Below are positions 1,644-60,501 of a stretch of DNA of 64,000 nt, in pieces (within the stretch, counting starts at the first letter, position 1; every line of letters begins with the position of its first letter). The position numbers were made by a program, and so were the translations under genes. This DNA comes from a virus (lineage: Duplodnaviria; Heunggongvirae; Uroviricota; Caudoviricetes), in IMG/VR virus record IMGVR_UViG_2744054962_000001. One strand, 5' to 3'. Below the pieces are notes generated by a model. That model was not told the DNA's origin and did no database searches. It was given only the letters and a program-made list of their open reading frames with translations.

Positions 1644-2033
1644 ATGGGCTTCCCTTCTCCTGCGGCGGATTATGCTGAGAGCCGTATTTCTCTTGATCAG
1701 CAGATAATTAGACATCCTTCAGCGACCTACTTCTTGAGGGCAGCTGATAGCCATCATCGTGAGGGAATATTGCAGGGTGCATTGCTGGTGGTCGATTCCT
1801 CACTCACCCCGGTTGATGGTTCTCTGCTTGTATGCGCTCTGGATGGGGAATATCGCGTAAAAAGATACCGGAAGTATCCACGTCAGCATCTGGAGGATTT
1901 AAGAACCGGTAAGAAGGAAGCATTGCCAAAGGATGACGATGGATGCACGGGCAGCAATGCCGTGTTTGGTGTGATCACTCACATTATCAACGACGCAAGA
2001 AGTGGCGAGTTTGATGATTGTCCCGTGATGTAG
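1644..2033 (+). CDS. UmuD-like S24 peptidase lacking the N-terminal arm (UmuD'-like), no adjacent umuC
   Basis: 129 aa starting MGFPSPAADY, colinear with UmuD from Gly25; Ser (ADSH) and Lys (RVKRY) dyad positions retained; GAGG RBS; LexA box upstream. Confidence 0.75.
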   Translation: MGFPSPAADYAESRISLDQQIIRHPSATYFLRAADSHHREGILQGALLVVDSSLTPVDGSLLVCALDGEYRVKRYRKYPRQHLEDLRTGKKEALPKDDDGCTGSNAVFGVITHIINDARSGEFDDCPVM

Positions 2034-2046
2034 GAGAACTGATTAG

Positions 2047-2071
2047 GCGGTGCAATGCACCGCCTTTTTAT
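2047..2071. terminator. Rho-independent terminator between convergent umuD-like and apbC
   Basis: Palindrome GGCGGTGCA-A-TGCACCGCC followed by TTTTTA. Confidence 0.65.
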
Positions 2072-3171
2072 CACACTGCGCGGAATGCGATTTCGCCAGG
2101 TATTACTTCACCTTGCCAATACATTTGGGCAGCAACGTGATCTGCGAGGTCACGATAAATAGCCGTAAATTCGCTATCTGGACGACTAATAACGGTTGGT
2201 GTTCCGTTATCCAGATCTTCACGAAGAGAGATATGAAGTGGCATTTGGCCTAACAACTGCGTGTTGTATTTCTCGGCCAGTTTCTGTGCGCCACCGGTGC
2301 CAAAAATTGGCTCGTGATGACCGCAGTTACTGCAAATATGCACACTCATGTTTTCGACGATACCCAGTACCGGCACTTCGACTTTTTCGAACATCACAAT
2401 GCCTTTCTTCGCATCGATCAGCGCGATGTCTTGCGGCGTAGTTACCACAACCGCACCAGTTACAGGAATGTTCTGCGCCAGCGTCAACTGAATATCACCA
2501 GTGCCCGGCGGCATATCGAGAACGAGATAGTCCAGATCAGGCCACAGTGTTTCCTGCAACATCTGCATCAGCGCCTTGCTGGCCATCGGTCCACGCCACA
2601 CCATCGCATTGTCGTCAGTGACCAGATAACCAATTGAATTGGTTGCCAGGCCATGAGACATGATAGGTGCCATGTGAGTACCGTCAGGTGAGGTTGGACG
2701 TTGGTTTTCCGCGCCCAGCATGGTTGGAATTGATGGCCCGTAGATATCGGCATCCAAAATACCAACTTTCGCACCTTCAGCCGCCAGCGCCAGCGCCAGG
2801 TTTACCGCCGTGGAGGATTTACCCACGCCGCCTTTACCGGAGCTGACCGCAATGATGTTCTTCACGCCATTAATGCCTGGTTGGTTTTTGACGCGCTTAA
2901 GCGTGGCAATGTTGTACGACAGCTTCCAGTCAATAGCCTTTGCGCCAGTGATACGGAGCAGATCACCACTACATTGCTCTTTCAGATCTTCAAAAGGCTT
3001 ATTCCACACGAAAGGCATGATTAGTTCGACATGCAGTGTGTCATCCATCAACGCAACATGGTGTAACGCTTTAAGCGTAGTCAGGTTGTGTTTCAGGGTT
3101 GGGTGCTGAAAATTAGCCAGCGTACCGGCTACCATTGCTCTCAGGGCATCCGGCGATTTGGACTCGCTCAT
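2071..3171 (-). CDS. apbC: Iron-sulfur cluster carrier ATPase ApbC/Mrp
   Basis: 366 aa; P-loop SSGKGGVGKSS; near-identity to enterobacterial Mrp as recalled; divergent from metG. Confidence 0.95.
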   Translation of the reverse strand: MSESKSPDALRAMVAGTLANFQHPTLKHNLTTLKALHHVALMDDTLHVELIMPFVWNKPFEDLKEQCSGDLLRITGAKAIDWKLSYNIATLKRVKNQPGINGVKNIIAVSSGKGGVGKSSTAVNLALALAAEGAKVGILDADIYGPSIPTMLGAENQRPTSPDGTHMAPIMSHGLATNSIGYLVTDDNAMVWRGPMASKALMQMLQETLWPDLDYLVLDMPPGTGDIQLTLAQNIPVTGAVVVTTPQDIALIDAKKGIVMFEKVEVPVLGIVENMSVHICSNCGHHEPIFGTGGAQKLAEKYNTQLLGQMPLHISLREDLDNGTPTVISRPDSEFTAIYRDLADHVAAQMYWQGEVIPGEIAFRAV

Positions 3172-3328
3172 CCCGTCTCCTTTATTTTAATTTGCGCAAT
3201 TGTCGCCTTGTAGTGTACTCCAGCTACGACATTTAATCATTTATGAGAAATGCTGTTATCACATGGCAGACATAAGGCCATTTTGTTACTATCAAGCCCC
3301 TTTTCACTACAAAGAAGTAATGCCTACT

Positions 3329-5362
3329 ATGACCCAAGTCGCGAAGAAAATTCTGGTGACGTGCGCGCTGCCGTACGCTAACGGCTCAATCCACCTCGGC
3401 CATATGCTGGAGCACATCCAGGCTGATGTCTGGGTTCGTTACCAGCGAATGCGCGGCCACGAGGTTAATTTCATCTGTGCCGACGATGCCCACGGTACGC
3501 CGATCATGCTGAAAGCGCAGCAGCTTGGTATCACACCGGAGCAGATGATTGGCGAAATGAGTCAGGAACACCAGACTGATTTCGCAGGCTTTAACATCAG
3601 CTATGACAACTATCACTCGACGCACAGCGAAGAGAACCGTCAGTTGTCTGAGCTTATCTATACTCGCCTGAAAGAGAACGGTTTTATTAAAAACCGCACT
3701 ATCTCTCAGTTGTACGACCCGGAAAAAGGCATGTTCCTGCCGGATCGTTTTGTAAAAGGCACCTGCCCGAAATGTAAAGCGCCAGATCAATACGGCGATA
3801 ACTGTGAAGTCTGCGGCGCAACATATAGCCCGACTGAATTGATCGAGCCGAAATCGGTGGTTTCTGGCGCTACCCCGGTAATGCGTGATTCCGAACACTT
3901 CTTCTTTGATCTGCCTTCTTTCAGCGAAATGTTGCAGGCATGGACCCGCAGCGGCGCGTTGCAGGAGCAGGTGGCGAACAAAATGCAGGAATGGTTTGAA
4001 TCCGGCCTGCAACAGTGGGATATCTCCCGAGATGCGCCTTACTTCGGTTTTGAAATTCCGAACGCGCCGGGCAAATATTTCTACGTCTGGCTGGACGCGC
4101 CGATTGGCTACATGGGTTCCTTCAAGAATCTGTGCGACAAGCGCGGCGATACCACCAGCTTCGATGAATACTGGAAGAAAGACTCCACCGCCGAGCTGTA
4201 CCACTTCATCGGTAAAGATATTGTTTACTTCCACAGCCTGTTCTGGCCTGCCATGCTGGAAGGCAGCAACTTCCGCAAGCCGACCAACCTGTTTGTTCAC
4301 GGCTATGTGACGGTGAACGGCGCGAAGATGTCCAAGTCTCGCGGCACCTTTATTAAAGCCAGCACCTGGCTGAATCATTTTGACGCCGACAGCCTGCGTT
4401 ACTACTACACTGCGAAACTCTCTTCGCGCATTGATGATATCGATCTCAACCTGGAGGATTTCGTTCAGCGCGTGAATGCCGATATCGTGAACAAAGTGGT
4501 TAACCTGGCCTCCCGTAATGCAGGCTTTATCAACAAGCGTTTTGACGGCGTGCTGGCAAGCGAACTGGCTGACCCGCAACTGTACAAAACCTTTACTGAT
4601 GCCGCTGAAGTGATTGGCGAAGCATGGGAAAGCCGCGAATTTGGTAAAGCTATCCGTGAAATCATGGCATTGGCTGACCTGGCTAACCGCTATGTCGATG
4701 AACAGGCTCCGTGGGTGGTGGCGAAGCAGGAAGGACGCGATGCCGATCTGCAGGCGATTTGCTCTATGGGCATTAACCTGTTCCGCGTGCTGATGACGTA
4801 CCTGAAGCCGGTACTGCCGAAACTGACTGAACGTGCAGAAGCATTCCTGAATACAGAACTGACCTGGGATGGTATCCAGCAACCGCTGCTGGGCCATAAA
4901 GTAAATCCGTTCAAGGCACTGTATAACCGCATCGATATGAAGCAGGTTGAAGCACTGGTGGAAGCATCCAAAGAAGAAGTGAAAGCCACAGCCGCACCGG
5001 TAACTGGCCCACTGGCTGACGACCCGATTCAGGAAACTATCACCTTTGACGACTTCGCCAAAGTTGACCTGCGCGTGGCGCTGATTGAAAACGCAGAGTT
5101 TGTAGAAGGTTCTGACAAACTGCTTCGCCTGACGCTGGATCTCGGTGGTGAAAAGCGTAATGTCTTCTCAGGCATCCGTTCCGCTTATCCAGATCCACAG
5201 GCACTGATTGGTCGTCACACCATTATGGTGGCTAACCTGGCACCACGTAAAATGCGCTTCGGTATCTCCGAAGGCATGGTGATGGCTGCTGGCCCTGGCG
5301 GAAAAGATATCTTCCTGTTAAGCCCGGATACCGGTGCTAAACCTGGCCACCAGGTTAAGTAA
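3329..5362 (+). CDS. metG: Methionyl-tRNA synthetase
   Basis: ORF track starts at 3200 but conserved N-terminus [25 protein letters not shown] begins at ATG 3329; 677 aa; C-terminal tRNA-binding domain present. Confidence 0.97.
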
Positions 5363-5382: not shown

Positions 5383-5409
5383 ATGCCCGGCAACACGCTG
5401 GGCATTTTC
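5383..5409 (+). terminator. metG terminator
   Basis: ATGCCCGG...CTGGGCAT inverted repeat followed by TTTT. Confidence 0.55.
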
Positions 5410-5445
5410 ATATAGACACAATCCCTCCTGATTTACACAAGCCCT

Positions 5446-5460
5446 AAAACAATTTGTTTT
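5446..5460. promoter_or_regulatory. Palindromic operator-like site AAAACAATTTGTTTT
   Basis: Perfect 15-bp palindrome; first copy of the repeated AAACAAnTTGTTT family. Confidence 0.5.
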
Positions 5461-5478
5461 CTACCTTTTGTTGATTGA

Positions 5479-5510
5479 GATAATAAGCCACATAAGAAAA
5501 CAAATTGTTT
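5479..5510 (+). promoter_or_regulatory. Early promoter/operator motif (GATAAT..ACA..GAAAACAAATTGTTT)
   Basis: Palindrome AAACAA-A-TTGTTT immediately upstream of RBS AGGAG and ATG 5516. Confidence 0.5.
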
Positions 5511-5515
5511 AGGAG

Positions 5516-5764
5516 ATGAAGATGTTTGGAACAGCAAAAGAAATCATCGAGAAACTGAAAAACTATCCAGAAGACGAACCCTTACTCATGGTTATGTGGC
5601 ACAAAGAAGATATTGCTGAAGTAAGGACAGATCTCACTGATGAACAATGCGTACAGGTGATGCAAAAAATCAGACAATGCCATAACGCTGATGTCGGCGT
5701 TAATTGGGAGGTTATATCAACTACGGCGAATGAGTTGTTTCCGAACGAGGTGGTAAAATGCTGA
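5516..5764 (+). CDS. Hypothetical early protein (82 aa)
   Basis: ORF with AGGAG RBS; start 5516 or 5522. Confidence 0.5.
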   Translation: MKMFGTAKEIIEKLKNYPEDEPLLMVMWHKEDIAEVRTDLTDEQCVQVMQKIRQCHNADVGVNWEVISTTANELFPNEVVKC

Positions 5765-5946
5765 AACTCACCAAATTGTATAAGACGACAGTTAGTAGCC
5801 CTACCCTCGTTACACAGCATGACTCTGAGTGTCTACCAAATATCTGTTTCGAGCACCATACGATCTCGGACTCAATTGGGTACAGAAACGGAGTATGGGG
5901 GAGTCAGGGGAGGGAAGAAAAGCTGCGTGATTACGGTGTCACATAG
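5758..5946 (+). CDS. Hypothetical small protein (62 aa)
   Basis: ATG overlaps upstream stop (ATGCTGA), suggesting translational coupling; no recognised domain. Confidence 0.3.
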   Translation: MLKLTKLYKTTVSSPTLVTQHDSECLPNICFEHHTISDSIGYRNGVWGSQGREEKLRDYGVT

Positions 5947-6058
5947 CAAACCATCAAGAACATTCGAAAGGTGCTCGATGTAGGATTTGATGCGGTACAA
6001 TTCCACCCTGACGCTGAAATAGACGATGGTCTGGAAAATTGGAAATTGTGAGGGATAA

Positions 6059-6457
6059 ATGAAATATGCACCATTGGCACTAATATTTTTTGTGCTTTCT
6101 GCTAATGCCACGCCAGTTGAAGAGCCTAACACTATCGTGTACCCACGATGCATGAAAATAGATCCGGAAACACACAAGCAATTACCTGGTTACAATATTG
6201 TTATGGATATAGGGAATAAATTTAAAATCGTTTCCCCAAATGGGAATTCGGTGATATCCATCTCGCTTGCCCAAAGTGAAAAAGATAGGAACATGTTCGA
6301 CGCCTCAGTCGGCGATGTTTACTTCTCTCGTTACCATGTTCAACCTGATGGGAACTTTCTATACTCAGCCTGGAGTGAAAAGGCGAAAGTTACAGTGCTG
6401 TGTAATGGTAAAAGCGGTGAGCGGCATTACGTTGACCCTATTCATTTCGAGAACTGA
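6059..6457 (+). CDS. Hypothetical exported protein with N-terminal signal peptide
   Basis: MKYAPLALIFFVLSANA-TPVEE signal-peptide-like N-terminus; GAGGG RBS. Confidence 0.6.
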   Translation: MKYAPLALIFFVLSANATPVEEPNTIVYPRCMKIDPETHKQLPGYNIVMDIGNKFKIVSPNGNSVISISLAQSEKDRNMFDASVGDVYFSRYHVQPDGNFLYSAWSEKAKVTVLCNGKSGERHYVDPIHFEN

Positions 6458-6589
6458 CTACACAAGTAAACAAATCAATCAGTTGATAATGGCGGTCACA
6501 ATTTGATTCTTTTCTATAAGAATCCGTTGATCGCCACTACTCCCCTTCCATACCTGCAATCACATCCTTAAATATCAATAAGTTATGGT

Positions 6590-7370
6590 TGTTTATACAA
6601 ACAAGAAAACAACTGAATAACAGATCAACGAAACGTCAATGCTTTCTCCCGATTTGGTCTAAAAAATTGACGTTTTCACACATCACTTCTTATACCCGTA
6701 ATTCTACGCAGCATATAGCGCCACAGCGTCCAAATTTCACCACAGACGACCCAACACACTACCAACAAAAACACACGCTCAAAATCGCTCCCGTTGCGTT
6801 ACACAACCATATAAACAACTTATTTTCAGGCATAACAAAACAACTAAATAACACACATGCCATTCCCCAAAACAACCAACCTCTTTATGGCAGGCTACCG
6901 AAAAGACCCACCTCTTCTCCCCAGGCTACCGGACAACCAACCTAACTTTCACAGGCAATCCGAAAACATTCATACGCGCGATACCCACGACACGCCATTC
7001 CCCAAACAGCGAAGAAACACCAGAATCACTGAAACCCCAACGAAGCCTGTAACAGCAAGGTTTCTCTCAATCCCAAAAGACACGAAACATAACAATCACG
7101 GGAAACGCCATTACCCAATACACGAATAACTACAAAAGCCCTTCACACTACAGACAAACAACTCAAACACAATAACGAAAGGAATCGCCCACCTGCCATT
7201 ACTCCATACACGGAGAAGAACAATCACCAAAACGACGAGAACACCCCATAGAAGAACCACCGCAAAACTAACGAAACCACATACACCGACAGGGAAAACA
7301 ACACACCCAATTCACCAACAGAAATAGTCGCCGTATAGAACGTTCTGGAAGGAGTGAGCATTAACGCCTA
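6590..7370 (+). other. A+C-rich, G-depleted stretch with no credible ORF (candidate untranslated RNA / Rho-loading region)
   Basis: Top strand dominated by A and C with CAA/ACA/CCAAC motifs; ORF-track ORFs here translate to low-complexity P/T/Q/N-rich peptides. Confidence 0.55.
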
Positions 7371-7537
7371 TAGAGAGGTTGAGACAGATAAAACACGAAG
7401 AAAACACAACATGTATAGCGAAGAAGCCAGGTATGTATAAGTGGGGAGGGAAGGAGGGGTGTCGCCTCCTTTTTCGTATTTATTCAACTCCTGATTTTAT
7501 CCCCCGTAACACCCCTACGGTCAGCCTTCGGTCCATA

Positions 7538-7676
7538 CAGGGAAAAGGTTGCATCCCGCTACAGAAACGGCTGGGTTGCCTTCGGGGAACGGCTGGAGGT
7601 TTTCAGGGAAACGGTCGAGTTGCCTGTGTGGATTTCGGGAAAAGGCTCGATGCCGGTTCAGGAACGGCGGCGTACC
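7538..7676 (+). repeat. Array of six direct repeats (iterons), consensus approx GGGAAACGGCTGGGTTGCC
   Basis: Six copies at roughly 21-32 bp spacing: 7538, 7562, 7583, 7604, 7636, 7659. Confidence 0.7.
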
Positions 7677-7987
7677 GGTATAGCGTGAGGGAGAGTTGCG
7701 GCTACCCACCTGTAATGTGCGGGAAGAAGAGAGGCGCTCACGTGCAGGCGAACTTACTTACCGCTGGATTCCCTCTGAATGCCCAGCTACAGCGTAATTG
7801 TGCCAGACAGCCAACGGGTCACAATCGATTTCAGTAGGTTTTCGGGGAGAGGATTATTCTGCCCACCAGCCACCTTCGGCCACTAAATCAGAATAATGTA
7901 AAAAGTGTACTCGATACTGAACCTGAAAACTCACTGCCAAAACAACATTCACCGGAATAAAATCCTTTTTCGCCTGTGCGTTATTGC

Positions 7988-8019
7988 GATAATAACACCA
8001 ACGAGAAAACAAGTTGTTT
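7988..8019 (+). promoter_or_regulatory. Conserved early promoter/operator (GATAATAACACCAACGAGAAAACAAGTTGTTT)
   Basis: One of four near-identical 32-bp copies (7988, 8471, 10126, 10610) ending in the AAACAAnTTGTTT palindrome; upstream of ATG 8032. Confidence 0.6.
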
Positions 8020-8031
8020 AAGGATTGCTTT

Positions 8032-10458: not shown

Positions 10459-10463
10459 AGATT

Positions 10464-10487
10464 AAGGCCACCAATGCTGGTGGCCTT
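10464..10487 (+). terminator. Hairpin, copy 2 of repeated element
   Basis: Perfect palindrome AAGGCCACCAATGCTGGTGGCCTT followed by AAATGAC. Confidence 0.5.
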
Positions 10488-10497
10488 AAATGACCAT

Positions 10498-10572
10498 CCT
10501 GTTTCCCGCAGGCTAAAAACACCAACCTCTTACCTCCAGGCAACCGACAAACCCACCTGTTCCCGTCCGGCT
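10498..10572 (-). repeat. Iteron-like repeats in reverse orientation (CCTGTTTCCCG..)
   Basis: CCTGTTTCCCGCAGGC and CCTGTTCCCGTCCGGC contain the reverse complement of the GGGAAAC core; CAGGCTACCG-type motifs shared with 6893-6960. Confidence 0.45.
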
Positions 10573-10609
10573 ACCGCAACTTTCCACTTTGACGCCTTAT
10601 TCGTACAAC

Positions 10610-10641
10610 GATAATTAACACCAACAAGAAAACAATATGTT
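10610..10641 (+). promoter_or_regulatory. Conserved early promoter/operator copy (degenerate palindrome)
   Basis: GATAATTAACACCAACAAGAAAACAATATGTT upstream of ATG 10663. Confidence 0.5.
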
Positions 10642-10662
10642 ATTTACGATAAGGAATTAATC

Positions 10663-11145
10663 ATGAATTTTATCGCTACTGTAAACGCACCCGCACATGG
10701 CAATATCGCTGTAACGTTCTCTGACATTGAAAAACGAGTACTTGGTGCATGGCGCGACAATGAGACGGTAGAACTGTCAGCACAAGAAAAATGCATTATT
10801 GCACGCGACATCATTGGCAATCGTCGTTACTCGCGGGTATTTGAGAAAGCGTATGTGGTAAATTCTGGATTCGGAACGTTCGTCTTTCCGGTGCGCTCCG
10901 GGCGATTCTGCCAGTCCAAGCTGATTGAGTTCGCTACGCAGATTTCTGTCTGGATTAAAACTCAATCGTCGTTCAAATTTTCCGACGATGAAGCAGTATC
11001 GCAGGGGATGCGGATCGCCAACAATGCGATTAAATGCAAAAACATTACGTATACCGCTGGCGTTGATACATGGAAACTGTTTTGCGCTAACTTTATGCTG
11101 AATGTATACGCAAGCAACCGCATCCACATCCTTGATGGCGTGTAA
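10663..11145 (+). CDS. Hypothetical protein (160 aa)
   Basis: ORF with AAGGA RBS; followed by hairpin GGGCCAGAAACGGCCC. Confidence 0.55.
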   Translation: MNFIATVNAPAHGNIAVTFSDIEKRVLGAWRDNETVELSAQEKCIIARDIIGNRRYSRVFEKAYVVNSGFGTFVFPVRSGRFCQSKLIEFATQISVWIKTQSSFKFSDDEAVSQGMRIANNAIKCKNITYTAGVDTWKLFCANFMLNVYASNRIHILDGV

Positions 11146-11154
11146 CTGAGAAGA

Positions 11155-11275
11155 GGGCCAGAAACGGCCCTTTCTCTATAGCCACCAGCTGCCTCAGGGA
11201 AATTTTCAGAAACGGCGAGGAACGTATTCATAAGCCGACGGGAAACGGCCAGGATTTTTTCGGGAAACGGCTGCA
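11155..11275 (+). repeat. Second iteron cluster (GAAACGGC core, at least 4 copies)
   Basis: CAGAAACGGCCC, CAGAAACGGCGAGG, GGGAAACGGCCAGG, GGGAAACGGCTGCA. Confidence 0.55.
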
Positions 11276-11724
11276 TTCGCCTTTATGTAGAAAAAACATC
11301 GGGAAGCTGGTGGAATCCAACCAGCGGTTGTCGGACAGGTGAGCGGGGAAAATTATGATGACTTTCGTCACCTGAGACATCCAGATTTCTTTCGTAGCGT
11401 AATCACATACGTGATTAAGTGGTGTGATTATGTGAAAAATCACGCGCACATAATACGCGAGCGGATACAGAACAACACAAAATGCCGATCCGCGCCGACA
11501 AATAAACGCGGATCACATAGCAAGAATAAAAGCCAATGATTAGCCATACACCATAACGCAATATAACGCGATTTAAGCGCGTTAATGCGCTAAGTAATGG
11601 GTATGTACTGGTAAGGATATAAAAGCGCGTCTATGGCGTTATTTTGGCGCTTATTTTTATGTTGTTGGTGTGAGTCAAAGACAATAAAAAACGCGCTAAT
11701 GATGGCGCGTTATGGTGGGAGTAT

Positions 11725-11755
11725 TGGAAACGAAAAAAGCGCCCATAGTGGGCGC
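11725..11755 (-). terminator. Rho-independent terminator (hairpin GCGCCCATAGTGGGCGC, copy 1)
   Basis: 17-bp palindrome at 11739-11755 followed on minus strand by T-run; just after stop of 11762..11992. Confidence 0.65.
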
Positions 11756-11761
11756 TCGATT

Positions 11762-11992
11762 TTATTTATGTAAACTGATTTCAAATCCCATTTCTACAAA
11801 CGCTTTTAACATTAAAAATATATCAGCGTCATTCACGTCTGCTTTTTTTCGCTCCTGGTCGCTCAATAAGTCAATTTTGCGCGTCGTTTCATCTATAAGC
11901 TCGACTGCGCGCCCAGCGTAACCAGCGATCCCAGCGATGCGATTAACAAAATATTCATTGCGCACGTTAACGCCAGCGATAAGAATAAACAT
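11762..11992 (-). CDS. Hypothetical small protein (76 aa) bracketed by identical terminator hairpins
   Basis: AAGGAG RBS 7 nt before ATG; identical 17-bp hairpins on both sides. Confidence 0.55.
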   Translation of the reverse strand: MFILIAGVNVRNEYFVNRIAGIAGYAGRAVELIDETTRKIDLLSDQERKKADVNDADIFLMLKAFVEMGFEISLHK

Positions 11993-12005
11993 GATTAAGC
12001 TCCTT

Positions 12006-12026
12006 AAAAGCGCCCATAGTGGGCGC
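12006..12026 (-). terminator. Rho-independent terminator (hairpin GCGCCCATAGTGGGCGC, copy 2)
   Basis: Identical hairpin at 12010-12026 plus T-run, after stop of 12040..12690. Confidence 0.6.
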
Positions 12027-12039
12027 CAGATTCCATTAA

Positions 12040-12690
12040 TTACGCTTTGAAAGCATCAGCCAGATAGTTATAGAAATCATTTTTAATAAAGCGATATTGC
12101 TGCGTACCAGCTTTTGCGCTTCCCATTCCTTTGACTTTCTCAACAAGTCCAAGACGTTCGCAAAGATTGATAAGCTGGTTGGCTTGAGTGTATCCTGCGT
12201 CTAATTTTATTTCGTTGGCTTTTTTCGCTTCATTCATTAAATCGAAAACAGCTCCATTTGTGAACGTCTCGATCTCGTCGTTAATCATATCGATTAATGC
12301 GAATACACGAGATCCGGACATATCAGCGACGGAATAAACACACTTTCCAGCTTTAATGGATTTAACCAGATAAACCAGTTTTTCCAGAGAATAACTATTA
12401 GTCATTGCATCACGGAAAAATACTTCTGGCGCTTGTTTGCTTGCTTTGATCGCATAGTAGAAAACAGAGCATAATTTTTCGTCTTCTACTGCGTTTACGA
12501 CGTTGTTGATGAAGTAAGCAAGTTTGGTGGTTGCAGCTTGCATATTTGCTTTGTCTGCTTTTGTGTGCGTACCATTTTTATAATGTTCGTTATATGTTTG
12601 AGTTGCCAGATCTGCTTTTTCGCGCAGCTCGTCGGATACAATGGCAGCAGCTTCAATGATGGACTTTTTAGAAATGATAATGTTAGCCAT
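12040..12690 (-). CDS. Hypothetical protein (216 aa), AT-rich island
   Basis: Start moved to ATG 12690 (AAGGA RBS, 8-nt spacer) from track start 12699. Confidence 0.6.
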   Translation of the reverse strand: MANIIISKKSIIEAAAIVSDELREKADLATQTYNEHYKNGTHTKADKANMQAATTKLAYFINNVVNAVEDEKLCSVFYYAIKASKQAPEVFFRDAMTNSYSLEKLVYLVKSIKAGKCVYSVADMSGSRVFALIDMINDEIETFTNGAVFDLMNEAKKANEIKLDAGYTQANQLINLCERLGLVEKVKGMGSAKAGTQQYRFIKNDFYNYLADAFKA

Positions 12691-12985: not shown

Positions 12986-13510
12986 TTAAAATGGAAGGAT
13001 TCGTTCAACCCAATCGAAGAAAACAAGTATTTTTCTGCCGTCTTCTAACTTAAGAGTGACCTGGCAAGCATCAACGCCTCTTGACACCCCTTCTATTTCA
13101 CGACCGTCTGTCATGTAGACCCTTATAGATTGGTCGTTTTGATAAGCCTTGCGACATATCGCAAAAAAGTCACGGCGTGATGGCTGATTGTCAACATAGT
13201 CTGGATGTATTGTTAGCCTACCTTTGAACTCGCGAGCAATGCCATCGATTACACCTGATTCAATTGTGCTAATGCGCTCAAGTGGGAGTCTTATACGATT
13301 TTCTTTATCATATGGAATCGGGCATAAATCTAGCTTATTGCGTGAAGGCATTGTCCCCTGAACGTACATGCAAAACACCTGACCGTCTTCAAGCGTGACT
13401 CTTACAGGAATGTTGTTCTTCCGCCAGAACATAAGTATGTTCTCAGCATGTTCGTAGTCTCGCGGCCAGACTTCAGCCGGTATGCCGTAGGTGATGTCCA
13501 ATGTTCTCAT
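12986..13510 (-). CDS. Hypothetical protein (174 aa), AT-rich island
   Basis: Stop overlaps upstream gene by 4 nt (coupled); no recognised motif. Confidence 0.55.
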   Translation of the reverse strand: MRTLDITYGIPAEVWPRDYEHAENILMFWRKNNIPVRVTLEDGQVFCMYVQGTMPSRNKLDLCPIPYDKENRIRLPLERISTIESGVIDGIAREFKGRLTIHPDYVDNQPSRRDFFAICRKAYQNDQSIRVYMTDGREIEGVSRGVDACQVTLKLEDGRKILVFFDWVERILPF

Positions 13511-17228: not shown

Positions 17229-17270
17229 AAACCTCTTTCCTTAGTGCCTTTTGTATGTTATTTGGCTATT

Positions 17271-60253: not shown

Positions 60254-60328
60254 GATGGTGTAGCTCAGCGGTAGAGCAGTTGGCTGTTAACCAACTGGTC
60301 GGTGGTTCGAATCCACCCACCATCGCCA
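60254..60328 (+). tRNA. tRNA-Asn (anticodon GTT)
   Basis: Cloverleaf: acceptor GATGGTG/CACCATC, D-arm GCTCAGCGGTAGAGC, anticodon loop CTGTTAA, T-loop TTCGAAT, encoded CCA. Confidence 0.85.
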
Positions 60329-60330
60329 AT

Positions 60331-60406
60331 GCCGGTTTAGCTCAGTTGGTAGAGCACCTGCCTTGTAAGCAGGATGTCAGCGGTTCGAATCCGTTAACCG
60401 GCACCA
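60331..60406 (+). tRNA. tRNA-Thr (anticodon TGT)
   Basis: Acceptor GCCGGTT/AACCGGC, anticodon stem CCTGC/GCAGG with loop CTTGTAA, T-loop TTCGAAT, encoded CCA. Confidence 0.85.
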
Positions 60407-60414
60407 ACACAATT

Positions 60415-60501
60415 GGAGAGTAGAGAGCATGGTGCTCAAGCGGTCTTGAAAGCCGTCCCATTGCGCAAGCGATGATGGTTCGATTCCATTACTCTCCGCC
60501 A
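60415..60501 (+). tRNA. tRNA-Ser (anticodon TGA), class II with long variable arm
   Basis: Acceptor GGAGAGT/ACTCTCC, anticodon loop CTTGAAA, variable arm with TTGCGCAA hairpin, T-loop TTCGATT, discriminator G plus CCA; anticodon stem has two G-U pairs. Confidence 0.65.

Follow-up and report, generated by a model that had tools for sequence, protein, structure and literature searches.

A strand-asymmetric, A+C-rich island in SSU5-like phage-plasmids and its possible role as a Rho-loading zone ahead of the early lytic genes

Location, composition and coding capacity of the island

The DNA analyzed here, a stretch of 64,000 nucleotides that is referred to below as the window, corresponds to an SSU5-like phage-plasmid with 97% identity to Escherichia phage Cyrano (pLF82). 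It includes a gene-free gap of 1.57 kb, which contains an island of unusual base composition: the top strand between 6590 and 7370 consists of 39.4% A, 31.0% C, 12.9% G and 16.6% T, while the figures for the whole window are 28.5, 21.7, 24.2 and 25.6%, respectively. When the fraction of A+C was calculated in 650-nt windows over the 64 kb, a mean of 0.502 was obtained (sd 0.033), with a maximum of 0.737 at 6677-7326 and a runner-up of 0.618, so that the core of the island, with 73.7% A+C in the top strand, lies 7 SD over the mean. Across 6600-7300 the GC skew ranges from -0.40 to -0.53 and the AT skew from +0.25 to +0.64. As a duplex, the island has a G+C content of 0.43-0.49, equal to that of its surroundings. 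An earlier note on this DNA had drawn attention to an A+C-rich, G-depleted stretch followed by a sharp switch to a G-rich array, and both observations are borne out: the island is unique in the 64 kb, no second region comparable to it appeared in the approximately 98 kb of Cyrano that were scanned, the array is real (7540-7680), and the right edge of the island is sharp and conserved (about 7320-7333). The left edge is diffuse and varies with the lineage between 6534 and 6837. The repetition of CAA and ACA motifs mentioned in the same note did not hold, since these triplets are no commoner than base composition predicts; what does recur in the island is a 31-nt unit, present three times, a GCCATTAC... 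unit, present several times, and the GAAAACA half-operator word. The features of the island and of a related region downstream are the following:

6482-6544, + strand: block B1, a conserved two-tier inverted repeat or hairpin that folds, GGCGGTCA...TGATCGCC enclosing GATTCTT/AAGAATC
6601-6698, + strand: block B2, with a promoter/operator-like unit, an inverted repeat and a TTGACG-N18-TATACC pair
6677-7326, + strand: island core, A+C-rich and depleted in G and T
6813-6825, no strand assigned: one of the scattered copies of the palindromic operator AAACAA-N-TTGTTT, located in the conserved block B3 (6771-6843)
6867-6961, + strand: three tandem 31-nt units, CCMACCTCTT-N5-CAGGCTACCG-N, in a conserved block
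6994-7248, + strand: scattered GCCATTAC-N-ATACACGGAGAAGAAC units (6994, 7107, 7195) and a fourth, weaker one (6859)
7311-7342, + strand: right-edge block B6, conserved and weakly promoter-like, with TTCACC-N17-TATAGA hexamers and a variable spacer
7435-7475, + strand: G-rich run, hairpin and T-run (GGAGGGGTGTCGCCTCCTTTTT), intrinsic terminator-like, from a terminator scan of the window
7540-7680, + strand: G-rich array in which some six GGGAAAMGG(Y)TG units follow one another about every 22 nt, most of them matching the elemental pause consensus GG-N8-YG
10480-10638, + strand: mini-island, a second small A+C-rich island with the same 30-nt units, between a terminator hairpin and the promoter of a gene for a 160-aa protein
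11190-11275, + strand: second GGGAAACGG array, located after the terminator of the 160-aa gene

The lack of a credible open reading frame, also indicated in the earlier note, was confirmed. Each of the six frames carries at least three stops in each of five lineages, between five and seven of the eight to ten indels that separate these lineages are not multiples of three, and the frame, start, end and extent of the local ORFs vary by lineage. None of these ORFs gave a match in Pfam and no reading frame is conserved among the relatives, so that the island does not behave as a protein-coding gene. We find it scarcely credible that it encodes either a low-complexity, Pro/Thr/Gln/Asn/Lys-rich protein in the top strand (CYRAN_103 in Cyrano) or a small hydrophobic peptide in the bottom strand (approximately 7166-7260). 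Top-strand ORFs of 118 and 90 aa are present, several lineages keep open the bottom-strand ORF that covers block B5, in which one indel measures 12 nt, and CDSs have been annotated here by some depositors; however, besides the shifting frames, the stops and the missing Pfam match, there is no conserved ATG with a ribosome-binding site (most relatives, for example, have ACG in place of the ATG at 6857), the majority of the RefSeq plasmids examined have no PGAP annotation here, and CYRAN_103 shows 0 FPKM in LB. The CDSs annotated in the island in several records are spurious. In a Citrobacter plasmid, PGAP calls one short minus-strand CDS within the island.

Conservation across lineages and repeated elements

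About ten genera are represented among the 839 sequenced plasmids that contain the island, which is also found in isolated virions, SSU5 among them. The earlier note had proposed a search for an equivalent in related phages as a check. Sequence identity among the five lineages compared (E. coli, Salmonella/Enterobacter/Citrobacter, Cronobacter, Klebsiella) is only 60-84%, and an A+C content of 67-73% is retained in all five, with values still of 68-75% outside the conserved blocks. The commonest two-base difference in the alignment is A<->C (61 columns; G<->T accounts for 7), and the transition/transversion ratio is 0.81 in the island versus 1.29 in the flank. The strand bias therefore looks selected, given that it persists in spite of the low identity, outside the blocks as well, and that A<->C transversions are dominant. 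It also implies a single-stranded state, because such a bias matters only when the strands are apart and the G+C content of the duplex is the same as in the surroundings. A search of IMG/VR for more distant relatives by means of a neighboring protein returned only relatives with at least 91% identity, and the fragments covering 6601-6931 that were detected in large Klebsiella plasmids are IS-flanked remnants and uninformative. Nothing was found in the literature on this region, on a lytic origin or on non-coding RNAs of SSU5-like elements.

Nine blocks are about 90% conserved between lineages that are otherwise 60-70% identical. Block B1 is the first conserved sequence after the lineage-specific cargo, the sequence upstream of it being unrelated between lineages; it folds at -13 to -20 kcal/mol in eight of nine sequences, and its inner stem varies in sequence by lineage with pairing retained. 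The fold of 6470-6720 has a z of -3.7. The promoter/operator-like unit of block B2 (6588-6614) keeps the left operator half only and is matched in the five lineages by a profile of eight early promoter-operator units (nhmmer, E 0.0005-0.004). In the same block, the inverted repeat AAACGTCAA-N-TTGACGTTT (6631-6675), whose arms covary (CAAT/ATTG in the window versus CAAC/GTTG in relatives), overlaps the conserved TTGACG-N18-TATACC pair (6668-6697). The operator AAACAA-N-TTGTTT has 28 matches in the window versus 3.7 expected; elsewhere it is found in front of early genes, with a GATAAT -10 on one side and the ribosome-binding site on the other, and the copy at 6813-6825 is a perfect palindrome in the SSU5 lineage. 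Among the regulators of the element are a putative repressor, which would recognize GAAAACAA-N-TTGTTTTC, ParB-like proteins and small early proteins.

With respect to the direct repeats, the 31-nt units are found in Cyrano only in the island and the mini-island. The GCCATTAC-N-ATACACGGAGAAGAAC units are present in 5-7 copies in the relatives, where GCCATTA occurs 4-5 times versus 0.05 expected, and the best-conserved block, B5 (7186-7248, 63 nt), falls within their region. The full 23-nt unit is absent from the rest of the window and of the approximately 98 kb of Cyrano scanned, and the bare 8-mer GCCATTAC appears at four further sites in the window. The possibility that these units are decayed copies of the early promoter-operator was discarded, as they went undetected by nhmmer, unlike the unit at 6588-6614 and the operator at 6813.

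The mini-island is conserved in SSU5 and in one Klebsiella plasmid. It resembles the repeat zone of the main island (E 2e-8) and ranks fourth among the least-structured RNA windows, and in three lineages its 30-nt units are located 12 nt upstream of the -35 of the 160-aa gene promoter. The same order of repeats, terminator and 22-nt array is observed in both modules, i.e. that of the island and that of the 160-aa gene. There is a weak resemblance (blastn E 0.03-0.8) between the terminator-like element at 7435-7475 and the G-rich terminator hairpin located after the 160-aa gene (10663-11145), and the second array (11190-11275) is not enriched in the pause consensus, with 3 matches versus 2.0 expected. 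The product of the 160-aa gene was considered and rejected as a replication initiator: its homologues are confined to the family, no PDB sequence matches it, and its AlphaFold2 model (pLDDT 81) gave no PDB fold match better than E 0.14. Neither tblastn nor blastn revealed similarity in the body of the island that would make it a decayed paralogue of this gene.

The predicted transcript and a putative Rho-loading zone

The minimum free energy calculated for the rightward RNA of the island is between -7.7 and -18.5 kcal/mol per 150 nt, compared with a mean of -36.7 (sd 8.1) for the window, and the three windows with the least structure in all 64 kb belong to this RNA; transcribed leftward, the island would give an RNA with an average degree of structure. 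Eight consecutive 78-nt windows of the island show C/G ratios of 2.2-3.7, the longest + strand run with C/G of at least 2.5 is, by far, 6492-7335, and the island holds 75% (205/274) of the + strand windows in which the ratio is at least 3. Published criteria for RUT sites are a C/G above 1 and a C every 11-13 nt over 78 nt (PMC6407284). With these criteria, as used in RhoTermPredict, 316 of 581 island windows pass, with a median C/G of 3.1, the criteria being permissive (8% of all + strand windows pass). The 31-nt unit zone and the mini-island constitute the two longest unbroken runs of passing windows. Computationally, then, the RNA has the C-rich, G-poor and unstructured character that the earlier note had attributed to it, and it would be free of ribosomes, as a Rho terminator requires, judging from the stops in all frames and the lack of a conserved ORF.

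A Rho terminator is expected to have a site of RNA polymerase pausing no more than about 150 nt downstream. Candidate features for pausing begin within approximately 113 nt of the last rut window, with the hairpin at 7448-7475 followed by a cluster of GG-N8-YG matches. Between 7440 and 7700 there are 13 such matches versus 4.4 expected, a number that was reached in none of 2000 shuffles and makes this the densest cluster on the + strand of the window, an enrichment that was noticed post hoc. In the relatives, 6-10 matches were counted versus 2.6-4.1 expected, the enrichment being marginal in three of the five lineages. The G-rich array at 7540-7680 could alternatively bind DNA. The terminator-like element at 7435-7475 was also detected in the Klebsiella lineage, and the hairpin was absent from the scans of the SSU5 and Cronobacter lineages.

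The neighboring genes are all oriented rightward and a scan for leftward promoter-like sites found none. Transcription of the island from upstream early promoters, which the earlier note considered, is not supported by promoter prediction: no canonical sigma-70 promoter was predicted just upstream, and promoter activity of the TTGACG-N18-TATACC pair at 6668-6697 is doubtful because its -10-like hexamer does not have the T at -7. No intrinsic terminator was found on the + strand between 5400 and 7448, and for that reason transcripts of the genes at 5516-5764 and 6059-6457 would enter the island. An antitermination checkpoint, also raised in that note, found no backing in the conserved blocks, where no element similar to boxA or boxB was seen by eye. 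In the one transcriptome available, RNA-seq data of the LF82/Cyrano lysogen (PMC9928086, S1 table), the upstream gene CYRAN_102 shows approximately 50-590 FPKM, CYRAN_103 (6589-6945 of the window) shows 0 FPKM in LB and at most about 14 elsewhere, and the downstream CYRAN_104 has low expression versus the zero of CYRAN_103, which would be compatible with weak initiation at 7311-7342. The silence of the island in the lysogen fits both efficient upstream termination and absent transcription; next to an expressed upstream gene, it is consistent with the action of Rho and non-diagnostic.

Our preferred reading, at somewhat less than even confidence, is that the island may be a very strong Rho-dependent stop, on which Rho would load to end transcription and so insulate the early lytic genes from the variable cargo. 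A rightward transcript entering it, at the junction of lineage-specific cargo genes with the conserved early region, would be untranslated, C-rich, poor in G and U and nearly unfoldable, and these properties would lead one to expect efficient loading of host Rho. Rho would then reach RNA polymerase in the structured, pause-rich and G-rich segment 7435-7700, and the repressor-controlled early genes (from 8032) would be insulated against read-through from cargo genes active in lysogeny and from upstream early operons. We infer from the sequence that the island may be transcribed, that Rho may act on it and that insulation may be the function under selection. Rho reportedly keeps the lytic genes of prophages silent (Cardinale et al. 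2008; Menouni et al. 2013).

In comparison with known Rho terminators (lambda tR1, the rho and tna leaders, Rho-targeted long 5' UTRs), the RNA of the island is alike in being untranslated, in having an unstructured sequence of 78 nt or more that is rich in C, poor in G and regular in the spacing of its C residues, and in the pause-type features after it, but the island is about ten times the length of a rut site, is depleted in U, carries conserved direct repeats and operator copies, is conserved across genera in composition rather than in sequence, and has a Rho dependence that is putative. As in the Rho-dependent silencing of the rac and KplE1 prophages, it borders genes expressed in lysogeny and repressed lytic genes, with a sharp drop of expression in LF82; those prophages, however, use ordinary terminators within or between genes and, to our knowledge, none of them involves a dedicated, conserved 0.7-kb island. 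Several facts also count against the Rho reading. With 0 FPKM in its first half, the island seems not to be reached by read-through, which would have stopped before 6589, at or before block B1; in that case the island would be a back-up at most. Its composition is more extreme than a rut site needs, because Rho requires about 80 nt, not about 700, and does not require depletion of U. Neither conserved direct repeats (31-nt, GCCATTAC, B5) nor operator copies are needed in a rut site, and the units of the mini-island lie directly upstream of a promoter, which is usually the place of activator sites. The conserved direct repeats keep a DNA-level platform or a trans-acting RNA as live rivals.

Other readings and significance for the family

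The first of these rivals, which we consider unlikely without dismissing it, takes the island as a regulatory platform in which the direct repeats (3 x 31 nt, 4-7 GCCATTAC units), the operators and the flanking inverted repeats bind regulators of the phage-plasmid, so that it would work as an enhancer or silencer of the early promoters or, together with the 22-nt G-rich array, as a lytic origin. The positions of the repeats are conserved, and in Cyrano they are limited to the early region (94-99 kb). The placement of the 30-nt units 12 nt from the -35 of the 160-aa gene in three lineages, and the parallel order of elements in the two modules (A and B), point in the same direction. The 22-nt period of the G-rich units is iteron-like, and the element encodes a helicase, a primase, Pol III alpha and a UvsW-like helicase, its lytic origin being unannotated. 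On the other hand, binding to the duplex leaves the strand-specific A+C bias between the repeats unexplained, and the only gene flanked by both types of repeats, that of the 160-aa protein, has no recognizable DNA-binding or initiator fold. The likeness to iteron origins (P1 oriR/incA, RepFIB, lambda ori) resides in the direct repeats, which form arrays with a period of about 22 nt in one case and 31 nt in the other, and in the two sets of repeats that flank a central unit. It does not extend further: there are no iterons matching a nearby initiator, the island (43-49% G+C) is not like an AT-rich unwinding element, and there is no turning point of the cumulative GC skew, whose minimum is at 17240 and tracks gene orientation. 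The RepA iterons of the element (CTATAGTGGATA) are unrelated in sequence and 33 kb away, and a plasmid RepA origin or incompatibility locus was rejected for lack of that relationship. Loss of function altogether, with the island as a decayed gene or promoter array shaped by local mutational bias such as deamination of an often single-stranded bottom strand, seems to us improbable. When a strand is exposed, its deamination (C->T and A->G) enriches it in G+T, a well-established effect in the mitochondrial heavy strand and in non-template strands, and the degenerate promoter-operator copy at 6588-6614 speaks of some decay here. Vertebrate mitochondrial DNA, with its A+C-rich light strand and G+T-rich heavy strand, shows the same kind of amino/keto asymmetry. 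In the island, though, the asymmetry is confined to 0.7 kb and the pattern of substitutions does not suit deamination, which predicts an excess of transitions where transversions, chiefly A<->C, are relatively more abundant; rightward transcription would expose the top strand and create the opposite bias; the nine blocks keep about 90% identity amid 60-70%; 839 plasmids of about ten genera, as well as SSU5 virions, have retained the island; and the 160-aa protein found no match in it by tblastn.

In a further reading, to which we give little weight, the island would be the body of a long, trans-acting non-coding RNA made in lytic growth. Free of structure, this RNA would titrate a host factor with affinity for single-stranded RNA, for instance Rho, Hfq, S1, the degradosome or G/U-rich sRNAs. 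Between operator-bearing sequences and a terminator-like hairpin, the island holds the place of a gene, as in the unit of the 160-aa gene, its composition is conserved, and silence in the lysogen fits a product of the lytic phase; but no convincing promoter is present, the TTGACG-N18-TATACC pair being without the -7 T, and an unstructured RNA would not last long if, as in some lineages, it had no stable hairpin at its 3' end. Slightly less weight still is given to a more specific form of the decoy RNA mentioned in the earlier note, a long, unfoldable RNA that early in the lytic cycle would occupy Rho hexamers or another single-stranded-RNA factor and so lower termination or alter RNA decay throughout the cell, to the benefit of the phage-plasmid. 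Such an RNA would do what P4 Psu and other Rho inhibitors do as proteins. The motifs of known decoys or sponges were looked for with negative results. Rfam 15 gave nothing at gathering score, with the best matches at a relaxed threshold having E of about 2; GGA (CsrB type) reaches z 1.0-1.8 at most; the ARN x4 and AANAANAA motifs (CrcZ type) are at expectation in four of the five lineages, with z 2.5-2.6 in L006; and CACAACA, from what we take to be the GcvB target word, CACAACAY, is found in the island of none of the five. Known sponge motifs being unenriched, a sponge for CsrA, Hfq/Crc or GcvB was rejected. With CsrB/CsrC, CrcZ and AgvB, the last reportedly a prophage-encoded C/A-rich anti-sRNA (Tree et al. 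2014), the island shares its non-coding nature, short repeated motifs in a single-stranded context and, as in AgvB and the GcvB targets, a richness in C and A. It differs from them in the lack of diagnostic motif enrichment and of an Rfam match, and its stable transcript is putative. Nor does it resemble a ToxI-type (type III) antitoxin array, in which nearly identical tandem repeats adjoin a gene for an endoribonuclease toxin, since there are only three units, 65-71% alike, and no adjacent gene. A FljA-family regulator encoded at 12986-13510 prompted a comparison with the fliC leader, whose sequence was confirmed in 3187 E. coli genomes; mimicry of the fliC 5' UTR was rejected, as the shared 9-mer, ACCCAATAC, is no better than those of shuffled leaders, which equalled it in 195 of 500 shuffles.

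Clinical E. coli, Klebsiella, Salmonella and Enterobacter commonly carry SSU5-type phage-plasmids, whose variable cargo is located next to this island. If the island is a Rho insulator that works independently of its context, it would explain how the backbone tolerates the exchange of expressed cargo with no leak into the lytic programme, and it would constitute a natural, portable and orientation-dependent transcription stop. Should it prove to be an origin or a trans-acting RNA, the SSU5-type family would gain a core function that is so far missing. The island is, besides, a clean example of apparent selection on bulk strand composition over sequence, of a kind that is missed by annotation based on genes or motifs.

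Composition, conservation and coding capacity of the island

The region is 97% identical to Escherichia phage Cyrano (pLF82 of E. coli LF82), on whose map the A+C-rich island lies at ~94.4-95.2 kb; further matches were to other SSU5-like phage-plasmids. The island is located 3' of the accessory-gene block and 5' of a run of small early genes; repA is 33 kb away and the terminase genes ~14 kb. Base composition confirmed the A+C-rich, G-depleted stretch of the earlier note (A 39.4, C 31.0, G 12.9 and T 16.6% over 6590-7370), with a peak of 73.7% A+C in the 650-nt window 6677-7326, 7 SD over the mean (runner-up, 61.8%), and no comparable island was found elsewhere in Cyrano (~98 kb scanned). The G-rich array said to follow it is real (7540-7680), and the CAA/ACA words are present, but only at the frequency that composition predicts; the true repeats are listed below.

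Features in and around the island (window coordinates; strand where assigned)
Left of 6482: cargo; MetRS and others in E. coli, a DUF262 gene in Klebsiella, DUF1380 and others in SSU5
6458-8031: gene-free gap between two rightward genes, holding the island
6482-6544: B1 hairpin, -13 to -20 kcal/mol in 8 of 9 folded sequences, -5.8 in K. oxytoca L010
6631-6675: B2 hairpin, -9.5 to -14 kcal/mol
6668-6697: promoter-like pair TTGACG-N18-TATACC, conserved hexamers, variable spacer
6867-6961: 31-nt units, three copies, true repeats
Within the island: GCCATTAC...ACACGGAGAAGAAC units, true repeats
Within the island: GAAAACA words, true repeats
7311-7339: promoter-like pair TTCACC-N17-TATAGA, conserved hexamers, variable spacer
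7448-7475: G-rich run with hairpin and T-run, ~113 nt past the last rut window
10663-11145, + strand: 160-aa protein (phrog_1641), confined to SSU5-like elements
5447, 5498, 6813, 8007, 8491, 9395, 10145, 10629, 20604, 20629, 48867, 50410, 52094: 17-bp palindrome sites

Homologous DNA was found in 839 plasmids (from Klebsiella, Escherichia, Enterobacter, Salmonella, Citrobacter, Cronobacter and others) and 12 phage records, and eleven loci standing for five lineages were aligned. The equivalent compositional island that the earlier note proposed looking for in related phages is present in all five lineages, with A+C of 67-73%, C/G of 1.8-2.6 and 60-84% identity between lineages; its right edge is fixed at ~7320-7333, and the left one varies from 6534 to 6837. 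The bias is equally strong away from the conserved blocks and repeat units, where A+C is 68-75%. Among two-base columns A<->C is the most frequent class (61) and G<->T the least (7), and transitions do not dominate (transition/transversion ratio of 0.81, versus 1.29 in the right flank). As far as the aligned sequences go, composition, rather than sequence, is what is kept, in a substitution pattern that selection against top-strand G and T would give and that is not the one expected from strand-specific deamination.

The earlier note saw no credible ORF here, and this held: frame, start and end of the ORFs vary from lineage to lineage, 5-7 of 8-10 indels between lineages have lengths not divisible by three, at least three stops interrupt every frame in each of the five lineages, and a Pfam search of the ORFs gave no match. 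Nor did an Rfam search of the island. The NCBI pipeline leaves ~1.5 kb unannotated in most RefSeq plasmids examined, with the exception of a Citrobacter plasmid, where one short minus-strand CDS was called. The island is not a gene; CYRAN_103, CYRAN_104 and SSU5_108, CDSs that some phage records place in this stretch, are in all probability spurious.

In the E. coli lineage a ~45-nt insert (7385-7430, ACAGATAAAACACGAAGAAAACACAACATGTATAGCG...), missing in all other aligned lineages, comes after the island and before the G-rich hairpin. A fragment equivalent to 6601-6931, from the conserved block B2 to the 31-nt repeats, is retained in large Klebsiella IncFIB/IncHI1B plasmids that are not phage-plasmids (L014 and L015, 170-430 kb), adjoining a DUF262 gene and IS elements; it is apparently the remnant of a recombined phage-plasmid.

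The cargo/backbone junction and its transcription in the lysogen

Left of 6482 the sequence is unrelated from lineage to lineage, so that the island lies where cargo gives way to backbone. Two conserved inverted repeats that can fold as hairpins (B1 and B2) open the backbone, and a terminator scan detected no + strand intrinsic terminator from 5400 to 7448. The transcript sought on the strength of the earlier note was not apparent in published RNA-seq of the LF82 lysogen (PMC9928086, S1 table): CYRAN_102, the cargo gene adjoining the island, reaches ~50-590 FPKM, CYRAN_103 (6589-6945) is silent in LB (0 FPKM) with at most ~14 elsewhere, and CYRAN_104, across the G-rich array, shows ~1-20. Given this fall, transcripts in the lysogen do not run across the junction, nor is the island an RNA of the lysogenic state. 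The zero across its first half suggests that transcripts end, or are rapidly degraded, no later than B1/B2.

The upstream cargo (1644-5362; CYRAN_98-100) encodes a LexA/UmuD-like S24 peptidase, the top-expressed Cyrano gene within the examined part of the LF82 table (CYRAN_74-123), an opposite-strand MinD/Mrp-type ATPase and a full-length methionyl-tRNA synthetase. Three clustered tRNA genes (Asn, Thr and Ser by the Cyrano annotation) lie at 60254-60498.

A paralogous module and a putative operator regulon

The stretch 10480-11300 repeats the outer parts of the island in the same order (30-nt units, G-rich terminator hairpin, GGGAAACGG units). The centre of the module, however, is a genuine 160-aa gene with promoter and operator, flanked by the two repeat families that surround the island; the two bodies share no similarity. 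AlphaFold2 gives its product a confident model (pLDDT 81, mixed beta/alpha), and PDB searches with the sequence and with the fold both came up empty. A second long gene-free region (11146-12040) lies after the second GGGAAACGG array, between convergent gene blocks; it has many short inverted repeats on ACGCG/CGCGT and AATCACA/TGTGATT, and the region is kept in SSU5 and Klebsiella relatives. Chi (GCTGGTGG) occurs 18 times in the window (e.g. 7863, 9997, 10476, 11182, 11306) against 1.4 expected, 12 of the 18 on the + strand; several copies lie within terminator hairpins, such as AAGGCCACCAATGCTGGTGGCCTT at 10462-10489, and that at 7863-7870 is kept in most relatives.

The 17-bp palindrome GAAAACAA-N-TTGTTTTC is dispersed over the window (13-nt core, 28 matches versus 3.7 expected), usually lying after a conserved AACACCAAC leader, with a GATAAT -10 on one side and the ribosome-binding site of an early gene on the other (genes at 5516, 8032, 8515, 10177, 10663 and others), which implies a regulon of a single putative repressor. 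In the island region it is present once in full (6813), and a degenerate promoter-operator unit occurs at 6588-6614 (nhmmer E ~1e-3 in all lineages); the two promoter-like pairs are kept as candidates only, because both miss the -7 T.

A full-length FljA-family protein (12986-13510, - strand, 174 aa; PF03614, repressor of phase-1 flagellin, E 9e-81), with a weak, below-threshold C-terminal Hfq-like match, is annotated in Cyrano merely as 'transcriptional regulator'. Its gene rises in LF82 from a log2(5+FPKM) of 4.2 in LB to ~8 in other conditions, and the protein may switch off host flagellin. The island was tested as a mimic of the fliC leader, with a negative result.

Proposed Rho loading and competing readings

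Island G+C (0.43-0.49) equals that of the flanks; the asymmetry is one of A+C versus G+T that leaves the duplex unaltered, and it can therefore matter only with the strands apart, as RNA or single-stranded DNA. Since A and C do not pair with each other, a rightward transcript would be the least structured RNA of the window (-7.7 to -18.5 kcal/mol per 150 nt; window -36.7, SD 8.1). A leftward one would fold ordinarily; all neighbouring genes are rightward, and the promoter scan found no leftward promoter-like site. Just downstream, 7426-7650 is of above-average structure.

The Rho-utilisation signature (C-rich, G-poor, unstructured) put forward in the earlier note was borne out computationally. 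Under the published RUT definition (78 nt, C/G>1, C every 11-13 nt; RhoTermPredict, PMC6407284), 316 of the 581 windows in the island pass, with a median C/G of 3.1. Of all + strand windows with C/G>=3, 75% fall in the island, which makes up 1.3% of the window, and the run with C/G>=2.5 (6492-7335) is five times the length of the next. The two longest unbroken stretches of such RUT windows coincide with the 31-nt repeat zone and with a mini-island that has the same units (10480-10638). The GGGAAAMGGYTG array, which comes next after the G-rich hairpin, has units fitting the elemental pause consensus GG-N8-YG, whose 13 matches (4.4 expected; 6-10 versus 2.6-4.1 in relatives) form the densest cluster of the window, a pattern noticed post hoc and given little weight.

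Several readings were weighed, and no description of the element was found in the literature searched. Protein coding, for which some phage records draw CDSs, has a negligible probability in view of the stops and frame-shifting indels. That the island is a functionless relic is very improbable. A trans-acting RNA of the lytic phase, with which the silence in the lysogen would fit, is improbable, and the Rfam search gave no match. That the island works at the level of DNA, as a regulatory platform or as an origin of lytic replication, is unlikely, the asymmetry leaving the duplex as it is; a DNA-binding role of the 30-nt units stays in play mainly because those of the module sit just upstream of its promoter. 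We tentatively favour, as the best-supported reading, a zone of Rho-loading termination and insulation. It leaves the conserved direct repeats, the length and the U depletion unexplained. Such a Rho-loading zone would explain the strand-specific, diffuse and conserved composition and the absence of structure and translation, together with the location next to the cargo, the pause features that follow and the drop in expression.
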